A stretch of 64,000 bases of DNA from a phage. Below are positions 754 through 51,385 of this stretch, piece by piece. The DNA lies in NCBI GenBank assembly GCA_012401045.1, contig GCA_012401045.1_4704.2; one strand, written 5' to 3'. Position numbers and translations under genes: made by a program. The first letter of the stretch is position 1. Each line of letters begins with the position of its first letter. The notes below the pieces were generated by a model. It saw only the letters and a program-made list of their open reading frames with translations. It had not been told where the DNA came from and searched no databases.

Positions 754-1188
754 TTATGTTTTAATATGCACATCGTCAATCCCCTCGGTAATCCAGCCGA
801 TGGGAAGGACAATCGTTGTTATCGTGTTATGGGTGTAATGATTGAGAAAGTGGAAATAGTAATTTTTGTTAGACTGTTCGATCCGTAGGTCGAGGTGCGC
901 GTCTTCAGGTAACCGTAACCAAGCACCGTACAGTTCATTAAACTTACGCTGAATTTTACCGGGGTTCATTGGAACCCCACGACCACGACGATGTAGCTGA
1001 CGTAATGATTCAATCAAACACTCAGAGATACCCGTTGTCGTTCCGTTATCGCTTGTATCAATAACGATGAACTCTCGTGACCCACGACCGAGATAAAAGC
1101 CAGCGACAAAAGCTGCAGCAACAAAAATTATCGTACCGATACCAATATACCAATAGTAAGTATCCATAACGACCTCACTTATACCCAA
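754..1188 (-). CDS. hypothetical membrane protein (144 aa, N-terminal TM helix)
   Basis: Hydrophobic N-terminal segment YWYIGIGTIIFVAAAFVAGFYL; 10-nt overlap with upstream gene suggests co-translation. Confidence 0.45.
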   Translation of the reverse strand: MGISEVVMDTYYWYIGIGTIIFVAAAFVAGFYLGRGSREFIVIDTSDNGTTTGISECLIESLRQLHRRGRGVPMNPGKIQRKFNELYGAWLRLPEDAHLDLRIEQSNKNYYFHFLNHYTHNTITTIVLPIGWITEGIDDVHIKT

Positions 1189-1712
1189 TAGTCGGCAAGC
1201 GGTTTTACCTTATTAATGGGCAACTGTACTTTACCGATGTTCTCTACATCCGCATCAGCGTAGAGAACAATTTTATCACCGTCTCTTTCCCAACGAATAA
1301 TGAATCGACCAGGAAGAAGATTACTCTGTTCAAGAGACGCAGTAACCTGTTGTGTTAAAACAGACAACCAAGCAGGCATCAGTGTTGCAACATCTAAGTC
1401 ATTTGACCATTCAGCGCGTTGCTCCACTGGACGTAACATACGTTCGACGGTGCGTTGAACTGTTGCGGTGATATAGCCTTTATCTTCGTCACTGATTGGA
1501 TCAGGACGAGACACAAAACGTTCAGCAGGCTTGTGGGTAATATATTCATGCAAATCGATGAGTGGTGTTGTCATAGTACTCGCTCCATCAGAATGTAATT
1601 GGGTAACCCGCAGGGTTGTCTGCATGCTATTCAGAAGCGCAAAAGCGCCATAAACAACAATGATACTAAGTACGACCAAAACAGAAATCATTAATGTGTA
1701 TTGCATTGTCAT
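1179..1712 (-). CDS. hypothetical membrane protein (177 aa, N-terminal TM helix)
   Basis: Hydrophobic N-terminal segment LMISVLVVLSIIVVYGAFALL followed by soluble domain. Confidence 0.45.
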   Translation of the reverse strand: MTMQYTLMISVLVVLSIIVVYGAFALLNSMQTTLRVTQLHSDGASTMTTPLIDLHEYITHKPAERFVSRPDPISDEDKGYITATVQRTVERMLRPVEQRAEWSNDLDVATLMPAWLSVLTQQVTASLEQSNLLPGRFIIRWERDGDKIVLYADADVENIGKVQLPINKVKPLADYWV

Positions 1713-2488: not shown

Positions 2489-2512
2489 CACTTAGGTAAT
2501 ATAGCCGTGAAA
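2489..2512 (-). promoter_or_regulatory. conserved 24-bp promoter-like motif, copy 1 (minus-strand reading TTTCACGGCTATATTACCTAAGTG)
   Basis: Identical 24-mer also at 15021-15044; close variants at 43179-43202 and 51362-51385; each lies 25-140 nt upstream of a minus-strand gene start. Confidence 0.45.
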
Positions 2513-3772: not shown

Positions 3773-4081
3773 ATGAGCAATTTGAACGTTGAATTTACTT
3801 CAACAACGCCTGTCATGAATGGTGTTGGCACTGAAACCAAAATCGTATTAGAACCCATTCCAGGGTTACGCGATCTCGGTGATTTTTATCCACTGATGCC
3901 GCGTATACGGAAGGCCTTAAACAGTATCGATCTTGATTCCAATAAAGATTTCCAACACGATACAGAAAATACCGATCATGTATTGCTGCCATCAGGGATC
4001 GCAAAATTCACCTACACGCAAACATTGAAAGCCTCTGATGGTGAAATCCGTCGTTTTATCGTTGAAGTAGAAAGCGCATAA
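3773..4081 (+). CDS. hypothetical protein (about 102 aa from ATG 3773; ORF track extends to GTG 3680)
   Basis: The GTG at 3680 and ATG at 3731 lack an RBS; ATG at 3773 has AAAAGG upstream; bidirectional hairpin downstream. Confidence 0.4.
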   Translation: MSNLNVEFTSTTPVMNGVGTETKIVLEPIPGLRDLGDFYPLMPRIRKALNSIDLDSNKDFQHDTENTDHVLLPSGIAKFTYTQTLKASDGEIRRFIVEVESA

Positions 4082-4134: not shown

Positions 4135-4764
4135 TTATTCAACAAACCCTGCATTCAACAGATTGTCGTAAACACGATTAGCGACATCAACAGGAGAATG
4201 TGTGTTACTGGTATCTATACGCAGCGTTTTCGCGTCGCCGAGATAGTCCATAAAATCCATGTAACGATAACGTCGTTTATTGAATGTCGCTTCATCGATG
4301 TTATCAAACATCTGATGTTTAGCGTGACGAACACGGAACCGCCTTAAATACGTAGGATAGTCGATATCCAGATAAACATAGTAAGACGGCATGATAATCG
4401 ACGGTAGGTTCGGCAACAATGCGTCAAACAACTTAACGTTGGCATCATTAACCTGATAAACATACGTCGAAGCAATCGAACGATCGCTAAGCACAGTCTT
4501 CCCTTCGTTAAGGGCTGGATGAATCACCTTGTTGAAGAGATGATTACGTTGCGACATCATCGCCAATAGTTCAGTTTCTGGATCGAATCTGTTCGTTGGT
4601 GTCTGATCTTCCAGGATAAGTTTACGAATGGCTTCTCCGTAGAGCGTACCACCGGGTTCACGTACGACACAGACGTTGTTTAAACGACTGTGTAAAGACG
4701 AGATAACCGAACTCTTTCCTGAATAATCCAGACCTTCAATAACGATATATTTATTACGAGACAT
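4135..4764 (-). CDS. tmk: thymidylate kinase (dTMP kinase)
   Basis: P-loop YIVIEGLDYSGKSS and REPGGT motif collinear with bacterial Tmk; ATG at 4764 with GGAG SD (ORF track begins at TTG 4776). Confidence 0.85.
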   Translation of the reverse strand: MSRNKYIVIEGLDYSGKSSVISSLHSRLNNVCVVREPGGTLYGEAIRKLILEDQTPTNRFDPETELLAMMSQRNHLFNKVIHPALNEGKTVLSDRSIASTYVYQVNDANVKLFDALLPNLPSIIMPSYYVYLDIDYPTYLRRFRVRHAKHQMFDNIDEATFNKRRYRYMDFMDYLGDAKTLRIDTSNTHSPVDVANRVYDNLLNAGFVE

Positions 4765-6655: not shown

Positions 6656-7467
6656 GGTGTTACAACAGCCTCTACTGACCATGGGAAGGTTTTCGCAACA
6701 ACACCTTCCAGGAAGCGTTCAACTTCCGATTGCTCATACACCGAAAGCTTTTCGAACGGCGTTTGGTCTTCGGTTAAACCTATCGCATGAATAGGACCCA
6801 GGTCTTTAACCAGAGTAACTTCACCTTTAACGCCTTCGCGTTTAACGATGATCGCATGATCATTAACCTTGGGATCATACAGCACGCGCATCATGGTTAC
6901 CGCGTCATCCGGTTCATGACCGAAATCGATGGCAACACGGGCATTCGTCCCTTCATCGTCCAGAAGCTTGCTTAGCGCTTTACAACGGTCTTCAATCCAA
7001 TCCAAAGCGACCACGGTTTCTTGGCGTAGCTGAACCTCAACCTCTTTTCCTTGTTCGTCGATACGTTTCACGGTAACAAAATCGTGTAATAAACGGTCAG
7101 GAAGGAGAGAAGAAATAAGCTCAATGTTGGGTTCAGGTTTTTCGTTTTCCAGAATGATGGTCGCTTGTGCGTCCAGATGTTCTTTAAAACGGATGTAGCG
7201 CGTTAATCGCAGAACTTCATCTTGGGATTTTGCGTCTTCGGGAATAATCTCCGTCATGACGTTATAAATCTTTTCAGCGAACGTCGGAATTACGGTGATT
7301 GTAATTCGTGCTGGTGTACCACGCTCCTGGTACTCATCGGCTAACTTCTTCGCCATCCCGTTAAAGTAGGTCTGGAGAAACGGTTGCTGCGTTAAAAACA
7401 TTTTCTCCAGATCGGAATAGCGATGCTTGCGTGCATGGCCTAGCTTCTTCATGGGTTTTTTCATCAA
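6652..7467 (-). CDS. hypothetical protein (271 aa)
   Basis: ORF between Rad50-like and RuvC-like genes, translationally coupled to the latter; no nuclease motif identified. Confidence 0.5.
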   Translation of the reverse strand: MMKKPMKKLGHARKHRYSDLEKMFLTQQPFLQTYFNGMAKKLADEYQERGTPARITITVIPTFAEKIYNVMTEIIPEDAKSQDEVLRLTRYIRFKEHLDAQATIILENEKPEPNIELISSLLPDRLLHDFVTVKRIDEQGKEVEVQLRQETVVALDWIEDRCKALSKLLDDEGTNARVAIDFGHEPDDAVTMMRVLYDPKVNDHAIIVKREGVKGEVTLVKDLGPIHAIGLTEDQTPFEKLSVYEQSEVERFLEGVVAKTFPWSVEAVVTP

Positions 7468-15020: not shown

Positions 15021-15044
15021 CACTTAGGTAATATAGCCGTGAAA
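15021..15044 (-). promoter_or_regulatory. conserved 24-bp promoter-like motif, copy 2
   Basis: Identical to copy at 2489-2512; about 80 nt upstream of the 14938 start. Confidence 0.45.
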
Positions 15045-37162: not shown

Positions 37163-39721
37163 TTACTGCTCTTCACGTTCCAGCAGATACTCGGAAGCGG
37201 TAATACCGTTTACCGTACGTACTGCTTTCAGACGAGTATCATCGCTCAGAATTACAGTAACAGATTGCAGACCTTTTACTTTGGTTTCGAAGGTCTTGAA
37301 CACCTGATCCAGCATACGAGCAATGCTTGGGTTGGTTGCAGCCGATGCGTGGGTGTAACCGCTCTGATTCAGCTTCAGAATCTTGGCGTTGGTCGGTACG
37401 CGAACAACAACATGCGGGCGCATCGCGAATACGCTGTGATTGAACCAGTAAGCGTCGTTACTATCTTCGTCGGTAACGATGTCTGGATTAACACGCATAT
37501 CCTCGACAGCCGCATCCGCCAAACGACGTTCGATTTCATCGGCGTCCAGAGAGCCATCTTTCTCCAGTTCTGCACGATACTCACTCATGGCAACCAGATG
37601 ACGTTCACGATTCGCTGCGGATTTTTCGTGAGCTGCTTTCAGGTAGTCATGCATGTTGTACAGTTCTGCCATGGAAAGACGAATGTTCCACTGACCTTCG
37701 CCGTCACGATTGCAGTAGAGACACTTCAGCATGTTGACCCAGGTATAGTAGCAATTGGAGAATTCATCTTCAATGAACTTCTGGTCCATTTTAAGATCGT
37801 GAATCAGCCAACCGGACAGTTCTCCGATATCATCAACGAAGCTAGAGATGGTGGTTTCAGAGAAGTTCTTCGGTACGATACGTTTGATCAGCTTATTGAC
37901 GTCTTTGGTCATGCTATCGTTCAGGAAATGCCAAATACGCAGAGGAATAACATCTCGATACTGTTGCATGATCTGACGATAAGCTTTGATATCGTCGCTA
38001 CGACCTTTATCAATAGACAACGCATCCAGGAATTCATGGATTGCATCCAGCTCTTTGTCGGTATAGGTTCCCAGATAGGAATTGACGGTGGCAAGGAATG
38101 CTAATGCGTCGTTTTGGTTGACGTCGGTGTTGGTCTGCTGAATGATTGCCACTGAAGCTTTGGTTTCAGCATCCTCAACGCTTGACGCTGCGATTGCGTC
38201 GGTGACGGTAAACAGTTTCATTTCGCGCTGCTCACCGACAACGATTGGCTCACGTTGAACCGGTTTGTTAAGACTAACACGAACAACTTCTGCTTGCGCG
38301 ATGCGATCCAGTTTTGCCATTTCCTGCTCTGCCATACGACGAGCGGTTGGATCTGATTCAAGTTCGATGTATTCCACTTCTTCCTCCGTGAGGGATGTAA
38401 TGTCAACAATGGTTTCATGAAGAATTCCGTTTTCGTCGATACGTGCTCGACGAGCGAAGTGCCTGAAGTCATACAACGTCGGCCAACGACTATTAGGTGC
38501 AAAGTCTTTGGCTTTCAGACGCATCTGCATAAATTCTTCATGTTGAACAACACGACCGTAACGCTTAGCATCTTCGGTCGCATCAATTGGATTAACGGTC
38601 TTTGTTACCGTAGCAGAACGAGCCGTACGAACGGGTTCCGGTTTCACCTGCGCAGGTTCAGGTTGAACGGGTTTCTGCTGCCCAGCCTTAACATGCCATT
38701 CTGGCTCTTCGTACTGTTCAGCAAACTGTTCAGCCGCTGCAAAGATATCGTTGATACCACCAATATCTCCTTCAGGATTTGTCGAGTAAATCCGTGGTTG
38801 TGGTGCCTCGTAACGCGGCGCTGTGTTAACAGGTACCTCATCAACGATAGGATCGTCATCACCAACATCATACAAACGGTTGAACGCACAATCCTTCGAA
38901 TCGATGTATGATGGCGCTTGTGGTTGGACAACCGTAGGTCGAGGTTGTGTGCCGTATCCTGGTGTTGTTGGAGCCATACCACGCATAACTGCAGGACTAG
39001 GTTGGTATTGCGGTTGTGGGTAGGTTCCACCATACATGGCGTACGCAGGCTGTTGTGGTTGACCATACCCGTTGCTAACCATCGCGCTTGCTTGCGGCCC
39101 ACGATAAGTCATCCCCATCTGCATCACCTGCTGCTTCAAACCACGTGATTTCTGAGCGATTTGCGCCAGGCTTCCGCTTTTATTCAGCTGCGTGTACTTA
39201 TTCGCGGCTTCCGGGTTAATGCGTGATAATTCAATCGCGCGATAATATTCCGGGTACTGATTCGGTTCAAAGAGCCACGTTACAAGATGATACAGCGCAA
39301 CTGTACTCACGGCAGCAGAGACGATCTGGTCATCGGACGCGTTCTGTGGCATCGGGTTGATGTAAGAGAACACGTTCCAACAACAGTCTTCAACAAGCGA
39401 TTCCATCATCATATCGTTATTGGTATAACGTGCGACGAACTCGGTTTGTATTTTGTCTTGCTGAGCGAAGTCTTTCAGGACATTAAAGATGGCTTGACGG
39501 ATTTTGACGATCGTCGCTTCTTGGGTGATGAAGTTATAGTTCTGCTGATATGAGGGTTGTTGGTATTGTGGTGGTTGATAGGCGTTATTCGGGTATGCGC
39601 CGTACGGCGATTGCTGATACTGTTGCTGACTAACCTGTTCAGCCGCATAATTAACCGTGCTCGTATAAGGGTTTTCGCTATAGCCCATTTGTTGATACAT
39701 GTTGTTACTGCCATTATACAT
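37163..39721 (-). CDS. hypothetical protein (852 aa) with Q/Y/P/N-rich low-complexity N-terminal region
   Basis: N-terminal about 60 aa and a second stretch around residues 200-270 rich in Q, Y, P, N, G (QQYQQSPYGAYPNNAYQPPQYQQPSYQQNY). Confidence 0.55.
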   Translation of the reverse strand: MYNGSNNMYQQMGYSENPYTSTVNYAAEQVSQQQYQQSPYGAYPNNAYQPPQYQQPSYQQNYNFITQEATIVKIRQAIFNVLKDFAQQDKIQTEFVARYTNNDMMMESLVEDCCWNVFSYINPMPQNASDDQIVSAAVSTVALYHLVTWLFEPNQYPEYYRAIELSRINPEAANKYTQLNKSGSLAQIAQKSRGLKQQVMQMGMTYRGPQASAMVSNGYGQPQQPAYAMYGGTYPQPQYQPSPAVMRGMAPTTPGYGTQPRPTVVQPQAPSYIDSKDCAFNRLYDVGDDDPIVDEVPVNTAPRYEAPQPRIYSTNPEGDIGGINDIFAAAEQFAEQYEEPEWHVKAGQQKPVQPEPAQVKPEPVRTARSATVTKTVNPIDATEDAKRYGRVVQHEEFMQMRLKAKDFAPNSRWPTLYDFRHFARRARIDENGILHETIVDITSLTEEEVEYIELESDPTARRMAEQEMAKLDRIAQAEVVRVSLNKPVQREPIVVGEQREMKLFTVTDAIAASSVEDAETKASVAIIQQTNTDVNQNDALAFLATVNSYLGTYTDKELDAIHEFLDALSIDKGRSDDIKAYRQIMQQYRDVIPLRIWHFLNDSMTKDVNKLIKRIVPKNFSETTISSFVDDIGELSGWLIHDLKMDQKFIEDEFSNCYYTWVNMLKCLYCNRDGEGQWNIRLSMAELYNMHDYLKAAHEKSAANRERHLVAMSEYRAELEKDGSLDADEIERRLADAAVEDMRVNPDIVTDEDSNDAYWFNHSVFAMRPHVVVRVPTNAKILKLNQSGYTHASAATNPSIARMLDQVFKTFETKVKGLQSVTVILSDDTRLKAVRTVNGITASEYLLEREEQ

Positions 39722-39755
39722 TTCTTACGATCCTTTTTATTTATTCGGTTATGTG

Positions 39756-41552
39756 TCAATCGATTATGTCACGATCGTTAATTTCTACAATTTCTTCATC
39801 GAATCGACCGACGTCTTTCTTCAAGCCTGCATTGGTTGCTGCAACGTCATTTGCAATTTGTGGGGTAATGATTAACCGACCGCGTTCGTCGATAGGTGCG
39901 TACATACTGAACTTCTGACGTCCGGTTGGTTCGGAGTGTGGAAGATTCAGATAGCTTGCGCAGAACGGGATGGAACCACTAACCAAACGACTCTCGTCAG
40001 CCAATGCAGCACCGCCTGCGTTTTGGCTCTGGAGAACAACATGCGTGCTCACTTTGAACAGCATGCAATCACCAGGTGACTGAATCGATGTTGCCACTTT
40101 CTCACGTTTGTCACGATTGCTCTGGATATTGAGAATCGCTTCCGTTGCAACTTGATTTCGCAACGCCTTCTGTACATCGCGATTGGTCATCTCTTTACGG
40201 TTGTTCTGTCGTTTACCACGCTCCGTGGTTTTAAGATGGAACCCCAGTTTAAAGATGCTCTTACGCACATCCTCCATGACATATTCCAACACCATCAATT
40301 CCTTACCGAACATCGTCGTGGTATCAACACGACTCATTTCGATAGTAACATTGTCAATCAGATAGGCCATAAATTCATAGAAGTCGTCGCAAGGAATATT
40401 TTCCTGTTTGAACTTCTTCTGCTGAATTTCGTCAACGTAAAGATCGAGACTGTCGATGTGGTGGTTTACATCACGCAACAAACGCGCATCCGCATTGTTG
40501 TTATTAAAGATAATCAAACCGAGTAATGTACGCCAATGGTCTGGCGCATTCGCGAACTCCTCAACCGGATAGTCTTCCGGAAAACGATCGTAATAACGGT
40601 CGATGAGATACAAGAATGCACCGACAAGGCCAAGAACAATACGTTCCGTGCCTCCACGTCTTACAGCAATTTGAATATCAGGATGTTTGTAACGTACAGC
40701 GCTAGCGCTACGACTTTTACCGCTTTTGCTGATACTAAAACCTTTAGGAATAACCCCCATGGTGCGATAGATTACCCATTGGTCACGCGGAAAATCGCGT
40801 TCAGCAAGGTTCCGTCCGGTTACGGCTTCGACACCTGCAAAACGTCGGAAACACTCACCCACCCCGTACTTCGCAAAGAGATAGTGACCCAGTGTGGTTA
40901 CGCTGGTGTGGTTGATGTTGTCACCGTTCACTTTACTTTGTTTGGTAAGATGATAGATTTGTGACCAGGGTAATGACAGGTAATGACGATAATCGATACC
41001 GGTCGGTGTATCATTGCTCAGGAACTGATACGGCGTACGTTTAACCGTGATTTTGTCACGCGGAAGCATGATGAACGCCATGTCTTTCGTGTAACTGATT
41101 ACCGGGTCAGCGAGCACTGCACTGAGAATGAAGTTCGCACCACGTAGACGCATTTTACCACCCTGACCTACCGCGGGTAATAGGAGAGGATGTCGGATAA
41201 TGCAGTAGTCCTTTCCGGGTTCACGACGGTCACCTGATTCCATCGCGCCGTACCAGCGGAATTCTAGCATCACCATAAACACATCGGATGGCGCAAGGTC
41301 GAAGGTCAGCTTACCGCTATCCTTCCCTTTGGTTTTCTTTCCTCCGCTTAAGTAGTGGAACTGTTCGCGGGCCATACAGCGACGCAGGCCATGATACACC
41401 AGATCCTTAGGTAAACTATCTTTGCTGTTCCGCCAAAGACGATCAACATAGGACTCAACATCTTGCATCTTATCGACGACGATGTTGCGTGCTATCTTCT
41501 CGTTCATCTTCGGTGCAAGCCCAGCGACAGCTTTGCAGAATCTAGGATCCAT
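39756..41552 (-). CDS. hypothetical protein (598 aa)
   Basis: ATG 41552 with AAAGGAG SD (track begins at GTG 41555). Confidence 0.55.
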   Translation of the reverse strand: MDPRFCKAVAGLAPKMNEKIARNIVVDKMQDVESYVDRLWRNSKDSLPKDLVYHGLRRCMAREQFHYLSGGKKTKGKDSGKLTFDLAPSDVFMVMLEFRWYGAMESGDRREPGKDYCIIRHPLLLPAVGQGGKMRLRGANFILSAVLADPVISYTKDMAFIMLPRDKITVKRTPYQFLSNDTPTGIDYRHYLSLPWSQIYHLTKQSKVNGDNINHTSVTTLGHYLFAKYGVGECFRRFAGVEAVTGRNLAERDFPRDQWVIYRTMGVIPKGFSISKSGKSRSASAVRYKHPDIQIAVRRGGTERIVLGLVGAFLYLIDRYYDRFPEDYPVEEFANAPDHWRTLLGLIIFNNNNADARLLRDVNHHIDSLDLYVDEIQQKKFKQENIPCDDFYEFMAYLIDNVTIEMSRVDTTTMFGKELMVLEYVMEDVRKSIFKLGFHLKTTERGKRQNNRKEMTNRDVQKALRNQVATEAILNIQSNRDKREKVATSIQSPGDCMLFKVSTHVVLQSQNAGGAALADESRLVSGSIPFCASYLNLPHSEPTGRQKFSMYAPIDERGRLIITPQIANDVAATNAGLKKDVGRFDEEIVEINDRDIID

Positions 41553-41591
41553 CACACACTCCTTTCAGAAAGTTGCTTAAGCAGATTAAAG

Positions 41592-43028
41592 TTACTTTTT
41601 CGATGACGCTTTCTCAAGAATCTTGAAAAAGGTCATACCTATACCGACAACGGCCGCGGTTATGCTCGCAGCGGCTTTCCAAACATCGACGTTACGTTGA
41701 CGTCGCGCTTCTTCCGCTTCACGTTGTCTTTTTGCCTCTTCATCACGTCGACGTATCTCAGCAGCAAACTCGTCGTGCTTACGTTTGGATTCTTCGTCTC
41801 GACGACGAAGTTCAGCGACGAATTCTTCATGTTTGCGTTTAGCCTCGTCGTCACGACGTTTTAAATCAGCTTGATAATCTTCGTGTATTTGTCTACGTAG
41901 ATCATCTTGACGCTTCATTTCGGCTTGGTGTTGTTCCATCCTACGTTTTTGTTCGTCTTTAAGCTGATCGAGTTCGGCTTTATGTTGTTCATCGCGCAGC
42001 TTTGCGTCGGCGCGATGCGCCTCATGCATCTGTGAGATAACTGCCTTGTGTTCATCCGCCATACGTCGCATTTCAGCCATCACCCCTTTAAGGGTTTCTT
42101 CTGATGCCTTACGTTCGTAGCTACGTTGGTCGAAATCATTTTTGTAGGCTTCTTTTTGGATGGGGTCGCGCCAATGCAATGCCGATTCACGTGTCGGAAA
42201 AACATTGTACTTCCACATCTCTTTTTCCAAATCTTCGACCGGTACGAAGATGGAGTCATTATTCCCGAAGGTAACCAACATGCCTGGCGCGCCTGCTCCA
42301 TTCGTTGGTTTTATTTCGAACGCTTTCCCCAACACGTTAACCCATAAGCTATACGGATTATGAAAGTCGGGCGGCGTCCAATGGATAGTGAGTTGCGTTC
42401 CGAGAATCCGGAAACCCTCTGTTTTTCCCGTCAAGCTCCGCGCGCACGTTGCGATGTAGGGGTGATCAATCCCTTTCGTAACGTGGTCTGCGCTTTTGTA
42501 TTCTCCTTTAACTTTTACGATTGCCACGTTGATTTGCGCGACATAAGCGGGTTGATTAAAGTTCAACGTGTTGAGGTCAATTTGACATATTTCATCCAGC
42601 GTATCGTACCAGTCTTGCTGGTCTAATAGACGCGGCATTTTCTCTGTGTTAACAATACGACGGATATGCGGTTTCCTTATCGCGTAACCTGTACCGTTTT
42701 TAACACGGAGTATATCCCGACGTCTACCCGCGTAGACGAAGTTTCTGAATGCACCATTCGCATTAGATACGTCATGGCTGTCAACTATTACAGGACTACG
42801 AAATTTTGAACGTCGTACGATCCTGAATGTATTGCCGTCCTCAACCCTACCAGGAATGTACTGGAACATATTGTCGGAGGTGATAACCAACACGGTATGG
42901 CCAGATTCATTAATACATGCCCATCCTAATTCCAGGTCATATAACGGTTCAGCATAACCGTCAATGCGATAAGCGTGCGTACCATCCCACGGTTCGAACG
43001 CGGTATCACATATTGGCATGGAGGGCAT
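41592..43028 (-). CDS. tail-anchored coiled-coil protein (about 478 aa): globular N-domain, KR/DE-rich repeat coiled coil, C-terminal TM helix
   Basis: Three tandem 17-aa repeats RRRDEE[AS]KRKH[DE]EF[VA]AE[LI]; C-terminal hydrophobic AAASITAAVVGIGMTFFKIL; ATG 43028 with GGAGG SD. Confidence 0.55.
   Translation of the reverse strand: MPSMPICDTAFEPWDGTHAYRIDGYAEPLYDLELGWACINESGHTVLVITSDNMFQYIPGRVEDGNTFRIVRRSKFRSPVIVDSHDVSNANGAFRNFVYAGRRRDILRVKNGTGYAIRKPHIRRIVNTEKMPRLLDQQDWYDTLDEICQIDLNTLNFNQPAYVAQINVAIVKVKGEYKSADHVTKGIDHPYIATCARSLTGKTEGFRILGTQLTIHWTPPDFHNPYSLWVNVLGKAFEIKPTNGAGAPGMLVTFGNNDSIFVPVEDLEKEMWKYNVFPTRESALHWRDPIQKEAYKNDFDQRSYERKASEETLKGVMAEMRRMADEHKAVISQMHEAHRADAKLRDEQHKAELDQLKDEQKRRMEQHQAEMKRQDDLRRQIHEDYQADLKRRDDEAKRKHEEFVAELRRRDEESKRKHDEFAAEIRRRDEEAKRQREAEEARRQRNVDVWKAAASITAAVVGIGMTFFKILEKASSKK
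41690..41850 (-). repeat. tandem about 51-nt coding repeats (3 units) inside the 41592-43028 gene
   Basis: Repeated ACGACGAAG...TTCTTCATGTTTGCGTTT units encoding the RRRDEEAKRKHEEF repeats; boundaries approximate. Confidence 0.4.
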
Positions 43029-43178
43029 CGTCAACCTCCATCAGATTGAAAACTATCACGCATAATACATTTCCCTTTTCTTGTTCTTATCGAGCCGACA
43101 GCCGACGGTTTCAGCATCGTTCCTAGCGCGAGAACGACCTTACGTGTTGTCTATGCCTTATTCATCGCAGGCGTCTGT

Positions 43179-43202
43179 CACCTAGGTAATGTAAGCGTCA
43201 AA
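43179..43202 (-). promoter_or_regulatory. conserved 24-bp promoter-like motif, copy 3 (variant TTTGACGCTTACATTACCTAGGTG)
   Basis: Downstream of capsid-gene hairpin and about 150 nt upstream of the 43028 start. Confidence 0.4.
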
Positions 43203-43236
43203 TTTTTTCTATTCGCAACGATAAACGGCATAGAAA

Positions 43237-43266
43237 CCTCCCCCAACCCTTGCGGGCTGAGGGAGG
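43237..43266 (-). terminator. GC-rich hairpin (family variant) downstream of the capsid-like gene
   Basis: Minus-strand CCTCCC...GGGAGG stem followed by TTTCTATGCC. Confidence 0.45.
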
Positions 43267-43365
43267 CTGACTTATGTATCACGGTGCCGGATGAATGTCC
43301 GGTGCAATGAAACCATCCGCAACGTTGTCATCAAGAATATCATCCAACGAAGCAGCTACGGTAGT

Positions 43366-45588
43366 TCAGTTAGTCTGAACCGGCAGCTTGATGTTTTCAG
43401 TGTAGACCTTACGCAGGTTCACAACGTTAATCAGACCCAGCAGCGGGCAGTTGTTAACGAAGCGGCAGCGCGGCTGAACCATGGTTTCTTTAGAAACCTG
43501 ACCGTTACGGGTAACCTGAGCAACAGATACCAGTTCCGGTACGTACAGGAACATACCGAAGGTCAGCGGATCCGGAGAACCCTGGATACCACGAGACAGG
43601 GTCACGAAGATCTTATCGCGCAGCATGACGTTCGGGTTATCTACAACCACGAAGTTGAAGCTTACACCGACGGTACGGAAATCGCCATCGGTCTGCAGGA
43701 ACTGCGGGATGTAGTTGTCAGTTGCTACTACGCAACGCGGTTTCTCATCGGCGTTGGAAGACAGCAGCTGCAGAGCTGGCTGATAACCAGACTCGGAGTA
43801 CATGCGGTATGCCATCTCACGAATCACGTTCATGATCGCAGCAGACACTTCAGCACGACGTTCTGCAGTGGTGGTACCCTGAACAGATTTCTCCAGGTCC
43901 AGATTGATTTCTTCGAACCACGGACGGATCAGGTAACGACCGAAACCTTCGATCTGGATGTCACCGAACTGACGGAAGCGAGAGGTCGCAACCGCTTTCA
44001 GTGCGTCTTTGTAGCTGAACAGTTTCTCAACCATCAGGTTGTCGAAACGTGCGTTAGCAGCTTGGATCAGAACGTCCAGGTCAGCAGCGTTTTCTTCCCA
44101 ATCCAGCGGACGAGGAATGGAGAACGGAGCCAGCAGGCCGATTGCGTAACGTTCTTGCTTCATGTTGAAGTCAAGGTGCTTACCGCGTTCACGACGGTTG
44201 CTGTTGTTACGGCGGATACGCAGTTCGTAACCAACCAGTTTGAAGCTCAGGTCTTCAGCCAGTTGTTTGAACTCTTCGCTCTTACGCGGTTGTTCGATGT
44301 TGTCCTGATCAACCAGGCGATACAGTTCAGCGTTAGCGCCGTTAACACGCAGACCCGCTTTCTCTACGTTGGAAGAACCGTAAACTTCGATCGCCAGCTG
44401 AGCAGCAGATTTCGCATCGATGATGTCCTGCAGCGCTTCGGCTTTCGCACCTTTAACGTCTTTGGTGTTCTCATCAACGAAGATGGAGTGGGTGTCGAAC
44501 GCCAGGGTCATTTTGCGGAAGTCGCCTTCCAGGGATTTCTGGAAACCGTTGGTGATCAGACCAGATACGTCGAACGGTACGTAAGAGGTTTTGCTGTGCT
44601 TGGTAGATTTGATTTCCACCAGGATTTTGGTCAGCGTGATCTGGGCGTCCAGCGCGTCGGTGTTGTCGCTATAACCGTTAGCCAGGATGCTATCGTCTTC
44701 AGCGATACCGATCATGTCGATCAGTTTATCAACAGCCAGGTAAGACGTTTTATAAGTTACGCCTTTAATTTCGATGTCGCGCGGAGCAACGATAGCTTTG
44801 TCAACGAAGTACTGCGCGTTAGCATCGTCAGCACGATAGATCGGATGCAGATCGGTCACGTCGTTGGACAGAACGTCGTTGTACATGAACGCATCCAGCA
44901 GCGGACGACGTACCCAATCAGCCGGAGTACCGTCGGCGTTACGACGCAGGTGGTTGAACACCAGCGGACGACGGAAAGATACGTCGTAACCGATCTGGTT
45001 CGGAGCCAGAACGATGGTGTTGTACAGTTCGTTACCCATGCGGCTCAGACGAGAAGCCTTCACGTTGAACACAACGGAGTACGGCATCATGTCACGCAGT
45101 TCTTTCTGGTCGTAGGACAGCTGAACCAGTTCTTCAGATTCGCAACCGCAGGAATCAGCAGCCATCATGACGAAGTTAGAGCTGTCAACTTCACGGCCAG
45201 ACGGAGTGGTGCTGATGTTCATGGAACGTGCTTGTTTAGCATATTCCACCGGGTTACCATGAGCCAGCATGATCAGTGCTGCTGCACGAGCCTGCTGTGC
45301 GTTCATGGTGAACAGCTGTTCTTCAATACGCTGCTTCTCTTCCGGAGTGGTGGTTTCGAAGCCCAGCATGGACAGAACCGGTTCTTCTGCTTTACGGATG
45401 TCGCTGCTGAAGCTCTTAACATCCATTTCGTTAACCAGTTTGTCCATGGATTTGAAATCAACCTTAGAAGCAGATTCCATAGACAGGAAGGTGTTCTCCA
45501 GACCTTTGTCTGCTGGTTTGCTACCATTAGCGGTCAGGAACTGGCGAGTGGCCGCGACCTGTTGGCTAAGAAGGGTTTTATCATTCAT
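43366..45588 (-). CDS. major capsid protein candidate (740 aa)
   Basis: Extreme highly-expressed-gene codon bias, capsid-like size for a jumbo phage, AAGGA SD, own upstream AT-rich region; could alternatively be another very abundant virion protein such as sheath. Confidence 0.5.
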   Translation of the reverse strand: MNDKTLLSQQVAATRQFLTANGSKPADKGLENTFLSMESASKVDFKSMDKLVNEMDVKSFSSDIRKAEEPVLSMLGFETTTPEEKQRIEEQLFTMNAQQARAAALIMLAHGNPVEYAKQARSMNISTTPSGREVDSSNFVMMAADSCGCESEELVQLSYDQKELRDMMPYSVVFNVKASRLSRMGNELYNTIVLAPNQIGYDVSFRRPLVFNHLRRNADGTPADWVRRPLLDAFMYNDVLSNDVTDLHPIYRADDANAQYFVDKAIVAPRDIEIKGVTYKTSYLAVDKLIDMIGIAEDDSILANGYSDNTDALDAQITLTKILVEIKSTKHSKTSYVPFDVSGLITNGFQKSLEGDFRKMTLAFDTHSIFVDENTKDVKGAKAEALQDIIDAKSAAQLAIEVYGSSNVEKAGLRVNGANAELYRLVDQDNIEQPRKSEEFKQLAEDLSFKLVGYELRIRRNNSNRRERGKHLDFNMKQERYAIGLLAPFSIPRPLDWEENAADLDVLIQAANARFDNLMVEKLFSYKDALKAVATSRFRQFGDIQIEGFGRYLIRPWFEEINLDLEKSVQGTTTAERRAEVSAAIMNVIREMAYRMYSESGYQPALQLLSSNADEKPRCVVATDNYIPQFLQTDGDFRTVGVSFNFVVVDNPNVMLRDKIFVTLSRGIQGSPDPLTFGMFLYVPELVSVAQVTRNGQVSKETMVQPRCRFVNNCPLLGLINVVNLRKVYTENIKLPVQTN

Positions 45589-45737
45589 TGAAAGTATCCT
45601 TTACAGAATTAACTTATATAAGTCGGTCGATAGACCATAGCGTACACGCGTGCATGCGCCACTATAGTATCAGTAAACACTTACCGTTATTGAGGTCGTG
45701 ATACAACACTAAAAATGCCGCATAACTTTTCCCTACG

Positions 45738-51361: not shown

Positions 51362-51385
51362 CACCTAGGTAATGTAGTCGCGAAA
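51362..51385 (-). promoter_or_regulatory. conserved 24-bp promoter-like motif, copy 4 (variant TTTCGCGACTACATTACCTAGGTG)
   Basis: About 55 nt upstream of the 51306 start, immediately downstream of a family hairpin. Confidence 0.4.

Follow-up and report, generated by a model that had tools for sequence, protein, structure and literature searches.

In nucleus-forming phages, the genome passes from a lipid vesicle into a protein shell and capsids assemble on the inner membrane; a 2025 review reports this assembly site for chimallivirus capsids and mentions no phage membrane protein, and neither there nor in the literature searched was a phage-encoded membrane protein named for genome hand-over or capsid assembly. 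About 20 genes are exclusive to these phages; of the 20 conserved genes unique to chimalliviruses, 19 scored as essential or as contributing strongly to fitness in a PhiKZ transposon library. One of them, cg35 (Goslar gp040, PhiKZ gp122, RAY gp001), is listed as "hypothetical" and as unique to chimallin-encoding phages (Prichard et al. 2023, Table S3). The present analysis concerns the cg35 gene in a stretch of 64,000 nucleotides of phage DNA (contig GCA_012401045.1_4704.2, hereafter the window), namely a coding sequence of 478 aa plus stop at 41592..43028 on the minus strand (open reading frame (ORF) list and translation). Its product is 99.4% identical to gp040 of Escherichia phage vB_EcoM_Goslar (YP_009820725, annotated as hypothetical protein), a nucleus-forming jumbo phage, and is by sequence the ortholog of Goslar gp040 and thus of the Chimalliviridae core gene product cg35; it is referred to as gp040 below.

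In an antisense oligomer (ASO) screen of PhiKZ, both oligomers against PHIKZ122 caused a weak loss of plaques and of ChmA, and RNA-seq of the PHIKZ122 knock-down revealed strong effects on phage transcription at 30 min. A PhiKZ transposon library contained no insertions in orf120-124 (orf122: 0 in 1083 bp) and 16 in orf125. In the searchable literature, no membrane anchor, stalk, or function is stated for this protein; matches to "gp122" in two papers refer to genes of other phages and were discarded. The family is already catalogued, and its tail-anchor-plus-ruler architecture and early-operon context were not found in the literature searched. The evidence set out below suggests, with a probability of roughly one half, that gp040 is an early-expressed, tail-anchored membrane protein; any specific role assigned to it is doubtful.

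Architecture of the gp040 protein

The layout given in a preliminary description of the window (N-terminal domain, charged helical region, C-terminal hydrophobic segment, and KK tail) was borne out, with an N-terminal region of ~290 aa. The hydrophobicity maximum of the protein lies at aa 452-468 (AAASITAAVVGIGMTFF; 41625..41675, minus strand), a putative tail-anchor transmembrane (TM) helix identified as the Kyte-Doolittle (KD) maximum, and is followed by only the 10 residues of a short basic tail, KILEKASSKK (aa 469-478; 41595..41624, minus strand, from the translation). Nothing comparable occurs elsewhere in the protein, and among the 41 large ORFs of the window gp040 is the only one with a TM-like hydrophobicity maximum at its C-terminus. 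In this, gp040 agrees with tail-anchored proteins, whose only hydrophobic segment lies at most ~30 residues from the C-terminus and which have neither a further TM segment nor a signal peptide. The segment comprises 17 uncharged residues with a KD average over 17 residues (KD17) of 1.82 and a summed Hessa scale value of +1.35 kcal/mol, which is marginal; summed Hessa values in the family range from -1.1 to above +4 kcal/mol.

For comparison across the family, 80 IMG/VR loci were gathered using the neighbouring gene for a non-virion RNA polymerase (nvRNAP) subunit as a handle, yielding 81 distinct upstream ORFs. The hydrophobicity maximum was located at the extreme C-terminus in ~73 of these 81 positional orthologs; there, the C-terminal segment is free of charged residues over a median length of 16-17, has K/R on both sides, and leaves 1-10 residues to the end of the protein. 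In many lineages KD17 of the segment reaches 2.0-2.5 and the motif RKDxSExxK[WF]xP precedes it; among close relatives the segment is invariant. Judged from these sequences, no architectural feature of the family is better conserved than the C-terminal hydrophobic segment, and gp040 is probably held in a lipid membrane by the ~17 residues at its end, with its insertion and topology predicted from sequence.

Several points weigh against reading gp040 as a tail-anchored membrane protein that is expressed early. With 16-17 residues the segment is short, its hydrophobicity is only moderate, and its summed Hessa value is positive in most family members; of the 41 large ORFs in the window, 8 attain a KD17 of at least 1.6 at some position. 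The PhiKZ/PhiPA3-like phages and a few further lineages have an amphipathic or weakly hydrophobic end in place of a clearly transmembrane one, and both flanks of the segment are basic, so that charge does not fix the topology. Furthermore, the model of the N-terminal domain is of moderate confidence (pLDDT ~30-80) and gives no indication of a partner, the early promoter of gp040 is read from a motif only, and the knock-down and transposon phenotypes of PhiKZ may be polar on the downstream nvRNAP gene.

The main rival explanation draws on some of the same features. It holds that the hydrophobic C-terminus is a protein-protein module, used for bundling of stalks or for docking in a groove of the chimallin shell, in which case gp040 would be a soluble or shell-bound spacer. 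A short, Gly/Ala-rich, marginally hydrophobic segment with small-xxx-small spacing and mostly positive Hessa sums would suit such a module, as would the amphipathic C-terminus of the PhiKZ-like lineage (hydrophobic moment muH 1.30, mean hydrophobicity H 1.20) and the confinement of the family to phages that build a protein shell. However, the segment always lies at the extreme C-terminus, its bracketing by K/R with only 1-10 residues following is the typical layout of a tail anchor, it is clearly hydrophobic (by the KD17 values given above) in many lineages, and it is not amphipathic in the Goslar clade. We consider this explanation unlikely, albeit the most serious of the alternatives.

Upstream of the putative anchor, residues 292-451 (~160 aa; 41676..42155, minus strand) constitute a charged alpha-helical stalk, delimited by the AlphaFold2 (AF2) helix and the charge pattern. 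AF2 predicted a single continuous helix from residue 289 to 474/475 with a pLDDT of up to 94 (first model); the stalk would measure ~24 nm if straight (160 residues at 0.15 nm each). Of its residues, 54% are charged (D/E/K/R) and 16% hydrophobic, and opposite charges are paired at i/i+3 and i/i+4 in 83 instances vs 42.5 +/- 5.1 in shuffled sequences (z = 8). No heptad periodicity was detected in the stalk: the Fourier peak of its hydrophobicity is not above that of shuffles (57% of shuffles reach it), and the power is 12.2 at 3.5 residues vs 34.0 at 3.67. The preliminary description spoke of coiled-coil repeats; a canonical heptad coiled coil was rejected for lack of a 3.5-residue peak and of significant hydrophobic periodicity. 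The stalk rather looks like an ER/K-type single alpha-helix (SAH), i.e., a stiff spacer, and, as modelled by AF2 from a single chain, it would be a monomeric single helix.

The stalk is built from repeats with a period of 18 aa (54 nt), based on the autocorrelation of aa 301-446 (lag 18, z = 9.4; lag 36, z = 5.8; all other lags from 1 to 39, z <= 2). About eight degenerate 18-aa (54-nt) repeats can be listed in register over aa 305-448 (41685..42116, minus strand), the three best conserved of which span aa 388-441 (41706..41867, minus strand) and read DLKRRDDEAKRKHEEFVA, ELRRRDEESKRKHDEFAA, and EIRRRDEEAKRQREAEEA. The tandem repeats reported earlier are hence real, with a period of 18 aa/54 nt instead of 17/51 and with ~8 units instead of three; the repeat motif written out in that description already counts 18 positions. 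At the DNA level the copies have diverged: tandem repeat detection with TRF on the gene returned 0 arrays at a score of at least 30, and the sole repeat trace found in the array is an 18-nt direct-repeat pair 54 nt apart (repeat search; 41919-41936 and 41973-41990, given without strand), both copies of which encode EQH[KQ]AE. There are 8 His in the stalk and a weak F/L stripe that recurs at the 18-residue period; since 18 residues make exactly five helical turns, the sparse F/L positions align on one helix face, and weak self-association of the stalk through this face is conceivable.

The remainder of the protein (aa 1-291; 42156..43028, minus strand) is a family-specific N-terminal domain that AF2 predicts to be beta-rich. 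A first AF2 run with 10 near-identical sequences gave a pLDDT below 50 for this domain and was unusable; the second run reached partial confidence, with strands at aa 35-75, 150-170, and 212-290 (pLDDT 70-82). Pfam searches with gp040 and 49 family N-terminal domains gave no consistent match, and a profile search against PDB sequences gave 0 matches at E <= 10. The domain carries a basic insert found in the Goslar clade only, with the stretch RIVRRSKFRS ... GRRRDILRVKNGTGYAIRKPHIRRIV (42627-42830, ~aa 67-134), most of which AF2 predicted with low confidence (~aa 77-144). It may represent a loop particular to this clade that binds nucleic acid or lipid.

Family distribution and stalk-length variation

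Searches with gp040 and the two more distantly related proteins P0015 and P0016 by tblastn against 50,697 phage genomes gave a match in Goslar only. A search of 1.84 billion representative proteins with the N-terminal domain retrieved just two distant homologs (31% identity, on metagenomic contigs), both of which retain the gene order capsid - X - nvRNAP, a charged helix, a hydrophobic C-terminus, and a basic tail. Five further family members (P0017 and P0018-P0021) were added by profile searches of a set of 5.8 billion proteins. The order capsid/gp040/nvRNAP is shared by the phages encoding P0015 and P0016, a PhiKZ-like phage, and Klebsiella phage Eowyn; in Serratia phage PCH45 the nvRNAP gene directly follows the counterpart of gp040, next to which no capsid gene is annotated. 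The positional counterparts in the PhiKZ-like phage (gp122), Eowyn, and PCH45 follow the same three-part plan, and domain, charged helix, and hydrophobic C-terminus are kept at ~14-30% identity in strict synteny. The preliminary description had named homologs lacking both repeats and anchor as a refutation; stalk and hydrophobic C-terminus were found to be kept across distant relatives, so that this check does not refute it.

A hidden Markov model (HMM) of the Goslar-clade N-terminal domain alone did not reach the other lineages, and the cross-lineage link required the reverse HMM, hhalign, and PHROGs. The family HMM reached the intermediates P0015 and P0016 at ~1e-10; hhalign of N-terminal domains only, Goslar clade against other chimalliviruses, gave a probability of 97.1% (E = 5e-11, 231 columns); and phrog_7727 matched gp040 at E = 1.4e-5, with PHROGs 7727, 7286, and 15024 being cross-linked. 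The 33 best matches in a Foldseek search against BFVD were all uncharacterised chimallivirus proteins (E down to 1.5e-11). These profile comparisons support homology, beyond analogy, of gp040 and the PhiKZ gp122-type proteins. Family stalks range from 25 to 189 aa (median 93), are ~49% charged, and contain 0-3 Pro/Gly; the Goslar clade has the longest ones (142, 160, 171, and 189 aa), with a salt-bridge z of 7.3-8.1 vs a family median of 1.8.

Among close relatives (85-99% identity), alleles of 460, 478, 489, and 507 aa occur, and their length differences, all confined to the stalk, comprise a single deletion of 18 aa and two insertions, of 18 and 11 aa; the core of the N-terminal domain and the last ~55 residues are invariant. 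The earlier suggestion that repeat number may vary is thus matched by the 18- and 11-aa indels. In the 460-aa allele, the deleted 18 aa map exactly between the two EQH[KQ]AE-coding direct repeats. One allele is a mosaic relative to the window, with a nucleotide identity of 97% in the N-terminal domain, 96% in the tail, and 78.5% in the stalk; because the stalk falls so far below the N-terminal domain, stalks appear to be exchanged by recombination as well. NCBI lists Goslar-like gp040 alleles (P0004, P0012, P0013, P0014) as hypothetical proteins from assemblies of Salmonella enterica and E. coli O157, with contigs of up to 244 kb, which suggests that Goslar-like phage genomes are carried along in assemblies of bacterial isolates.

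Transcriptional context and neighbouring genes

The 6-kb stretch at 39700-45700 of the window is 98.9% identical to Goslar, whose coordinates are ~72 higher than those of the window. The order on the minus strand is major capsid gene, gp040, nvRNAP subunit gene, and a gene for an 852-aa protein. The upstream gene (43366..45588, minus strand; Goslar gp041) encodes a PhiKZ-type major capsid protein (Pfam PF25620, E = 5e-218), and the downstream gene (39756..41555, minus strand; Goslar gp039, PhiKZ gp123) encodes a beta-like nvRNAP subunit (phrog_2943, E = 1.2e-119), the relatives of which, identified by tblastn, carry nvRNAP subunit annotations. Translation of gp040 was assigned to the ATG at 43028, which is preceded at 6 nt by the Shine-Dalgarno sequence GGAGG (43035..43039, minus strand, found by sequence inspection); the TTG at 43034 chosen by the ORF finder was rejected, as it leaves no spacer to the Shine-Dalgarno sequence. 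That the gene lies directly downstream of the capsid gene, as previously noted, is correct for the gene order, but the two are separated by a spacer of 337 nt which contains a hairpin and a promoter-like motif.

The hairpin (43232..43272, minus strand) is terminator-like, consisting of a 15-bp, mostly G-C stem and a GCAA loop followed by UUUCU, with a folding free energy of -30 kcal/mol (z = -5.1), and is located ~95 nt past the capsid stop codon. Counterparts with folding free energies of -26 to -31 kcal/mol lie behind the capsid genes of the phages encoding P0015 and P0016, of Eowyn, and of the PhiKZ-like phage (identified by position and form; L002 ~4599-4648, L005 ~7242-7291, L007 ~4238-4287, L006 ~3880-3929), sharing a CATAA...TTATG frame, a G+C-rich stem, and a tetraloop of GCAA, UUCG, UUAC, or GAAA. 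The last bases of the 3' arm of the hairpin, TATG, coincide with the late-promoter core reported for phiKZ, perhaps only by chance.

An early-promoter-like motif, TTTGACGCTTACATTACCTAGGTG, is situated 150 nt upstream of the gp040 ATG (43179..43202, minus strand) and was recognised by consensus match and conservation; its core is invariant in five Goslar-clade lineages despite gp040 proteins that are only ~30% identical. The motif agrees with the AT-rich early consensus published for promoters of the virion RNA polymerase (phiKZ, TATATTAC; 201phi2-1, TTTRARR-BTATATTACDWHDGTG; EL, CCTACATTATY). The 24-nt form TTTSRCGNYTAYATTACCTARGTG occurs four times in the window (2489-2512, 15021-15044, 43179-43202, and 51362-51385, all minus strand), each copy being intergenic and 24-150 nt upstream of the start of a co-oriented gene; given the match to the early consensus, the four copies probably mark early transcription units of Goslar in this window. 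Within 300 nt upstream of cg35, the core TA[CT]ATTA[CT] was present in 43 of 72 loci, compared to 32 of 2077 background windows. A scan for sigma-70 promoters gave no match, as expected for a phage using its own polymerases. Initiation at this motif would place the 5' end of the early transcript a few nt past TACATTAC, near 43175-43180.

Downstream, gp039 starts 36 nt after the gp040 stop, and the gap between the two contains no hairpin and, on the minus strand, no terminator-like site; judging from this arrangement, gp040 and gp039 are probably in the same transcription unit. In this phage group, nvRNAP genes belong to the early class, which the injected virion polymerase transcribes (PMC7598289). 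Given the hairpin, the early motif, and the adjacency to the nvRNAP gene, gp040 is most likely not a late head gene but the one that opens an early operon, and its expression in Goslar would be early.

This context bears on the membrane-tethered scaffold or organiser put forward in the preliminary description. Applied to procapsids, gp040 would be an inner-membrane anchor or organiser which nucleates or holds the procapsid (portal/scaffold) until its release to the phage nucleus. Its favourable points are the location of the gene after the PhiKZ-type capsid gene in all lineages examined, the reported assembly of chimallivirus capsids on the inner membrane for which the 2025 review names no phage membrane protein, and the conserved tail-anchor architecture. 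They are opposed by the strong, conserved terminator hairpin between the two genes and by the early-promoter-type motif and coupling to the early nvRNAP gene. Moreover, PhiKZ122 carries no virion label in the table of the ASO screen, unlike its neighbours 119, 126, and 129, its knock-down shifts transcription and ChmA, which is unexpected for a pure capsid factor (although polarity could explain it), and no similarity to scaffold, portal, or chaperone families was found in Pfam or PHROG. A procapsid anchor therefore appears improbable: of the membrane-tethered scaffold or organiser proposed earlier, the conserved architecture stands, and the structural or assembly part is weakened by terminator, early motif, and nvRNAP adjacency.

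Somewhat less credible still is an nvRNAP accessory factor that binds, holds, or delivers subunits before nuclear import, perhaps at a membrane, or a regulator of the early-to-middle switch. Adjacency to the nvRNAP gene is invariant over ~80 loci with gaps of tens of nt, the early promoter would be shared (as judged from the motif), and the PhiKZ122 knock-down strongly affects phage transcription at 30 min. Purified PhiKZ nvRNAP, however, is reported to consist of gp55, gp68, gp71-73, gp74, and gp123, without gp122. The RNA-seq of the ASO study singles out ChmA, nvRNAP, and PicA as clustering strongly, PhiKZ122 not being named there. The transcription phenotype may also reflect polarity on gp123, and an accessory factor would leave the conserved hydrophobic C-terminus and the long stalk without a role. 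Finally, a lysis or envelope protein (holin-, spanin-, or superinfection-exclusion-like) lying here by chance, suggested by a superficial resemblance of the single hydrophobic helix and long helical region to i-spanins, was rejected as highly improbable, since the hydrophobic helix is C-terminal and not N-terminal, leaving the bulk of the protein cytoplasmic, the neighbours are capsid and RNA polymerase genes without an endolysin, holin, or o-spanin, no lysis family matched in Pfam or PHROG, and the gene is a family-specific core gene free of transposon insertions in PhiKZ.

Further observations were made on other parts of the window. The gp038 ortholog following gp039 (37163-39721, minus strand; 852 aa) begins with ~60 aa of low complexity that are rich in Q/Y/P/N, and a further stretch, rich in Q/P/Y, occurs at ~aa 205-280; it had no family match except for a sub-threshold hit to Cas9_C_2 (E = 0.0017), and corresponds in position to PhiKZ gp124, whose ASO knock-down likewise perturbed phage transcription. 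A 766-aa open frame on the plus strand (43291-45591) is antisense to the entire major capsid gene; rather than being a gene, it almost certainly reflects, as a shadow ORF, the strong bias of the capsid coding sequence. The N-terminal segment of a 177-aa ORF (1179-1712, minus strand) is strongly hydrophobic (KD17 = 2.89 at residue 11) and looks like a signal anchor or TM helix, making this ORF a second candidate membrane protein of the window. Over the 64-kb window, ARAGORN detected no tRNA or tmRNA genes, and Rfam gave no family at gathering threshold.

Proposed mechanism and comparison with known systems

As an early-expressed, tail-anchored membrane protein, gp040 would be translated in the cytoplasm and its last ~17-20 hydrophobic residues would insert post-translationally into a lipid bilayer, the candidates being the inner membrane and the lipid early phage infection (EPI) vesicle in which the injected genome first resides. 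The beta-rich N-terminal domain would stay cytoplasmic, held 20-25 nm (~24 nm for a straight stalk) off the membrane by the ~160-residue, salt-bridged single alpha-helix, and the stalk of 18-residue (five-turn) units would serve as an adjustable spacer through gain and loss of 18 or 11 residues and through recombination. In this way, gp040 may tether or position a partner of its N-terminal domain at a set distance from the membrane, in the service of an early membrane-proximal step of the nucleus-forming cycle, the most attractive of which would be the hand-over from EPI vesicle to chimallin shell. Such a step is likelier than capsid assembly in view of the probable early expression, the restriction to nucleus-forming phages, and the ChmA and transcription phenotypes.

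Taken furthest, cg35 might supply the phage-encoded connection that is still missing between the two organelles of nucleus-forming phages, a speculative role that we rate as improbable. The protein would then be produced immediately from its early promoter, the N-terminal domain would capture or nucleate the chimallin shell or the genome-moving machinery, the anchor would reside in the genome vesicle or the adjoining inner membrane, and the stalk would act as a ruler for the distance from membrane to shell; if true, bacterial viruses would have their first described example of a tail-anchored organelle tether. A conserved putative anchor on an adjustable stalk, encoded by a probable early gene, bears on an open question in phage cell biology. 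Annotated only as hypothetical, cg35 is without transposon insertions in PhiKZ (subject to the caveat of polarity). The natural series of stalk lengths, both across the family and within the Goslar clade, is well suited to a test of a ruler function.

With regard to described systems, the membrane-bound initiation of proheads by T4 gp40 and gp20 is comparable in that a phage membrane protein encoded near head genes aids capsid assembly at the inner membrane; gp040 differs from it by the absence of matches to head-assembly families in Pfam or PHROG, by its predicted early expression, and by its restriction to nucleus-forming phages. Tail-anchored inner-membrane proteins of bacteria are exemplified by E. 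coli ElaB, YqjD, and YgaM (DUF883), which likewise combine a cytoplasmic N-terminal part, a helical middle, and one C-terminal hydrophobic helix with a few basic residues. In contrast to these, gp040 is phage-encoded and has a much larger N-terminal domain and a far longer stalk; no sequence relationship is apparent (no Pfam match), and membership among the DUF883-type proteins is not claimed. The stalk resembles SAH (ER/K) spacers such as the lever extensions of myosin X and VI in its high content of E/K/R, the opposite-charge pairing from i to i+3/i+4, the lack of a hydrophobic seam, and the prediction as one long isolated helix; it is unlike them in linking a globular domain to a putative membrane anchor and in its 8 His and F/L stripe. 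Closest are the other members of the cg35 family (PhiKZ gp122, RAY gp001, 201phi2-1 B3FJ64), with which gp040 shares position, a homologous N-terminal domain, a charged stalk, and a hydrophobic C-terminus, and from which the Goslar clade is set apart by the longest stalk of 18-aa repeats, the strongest salt-bridge pattern, and the extra basic insert in the N-terminal domain.

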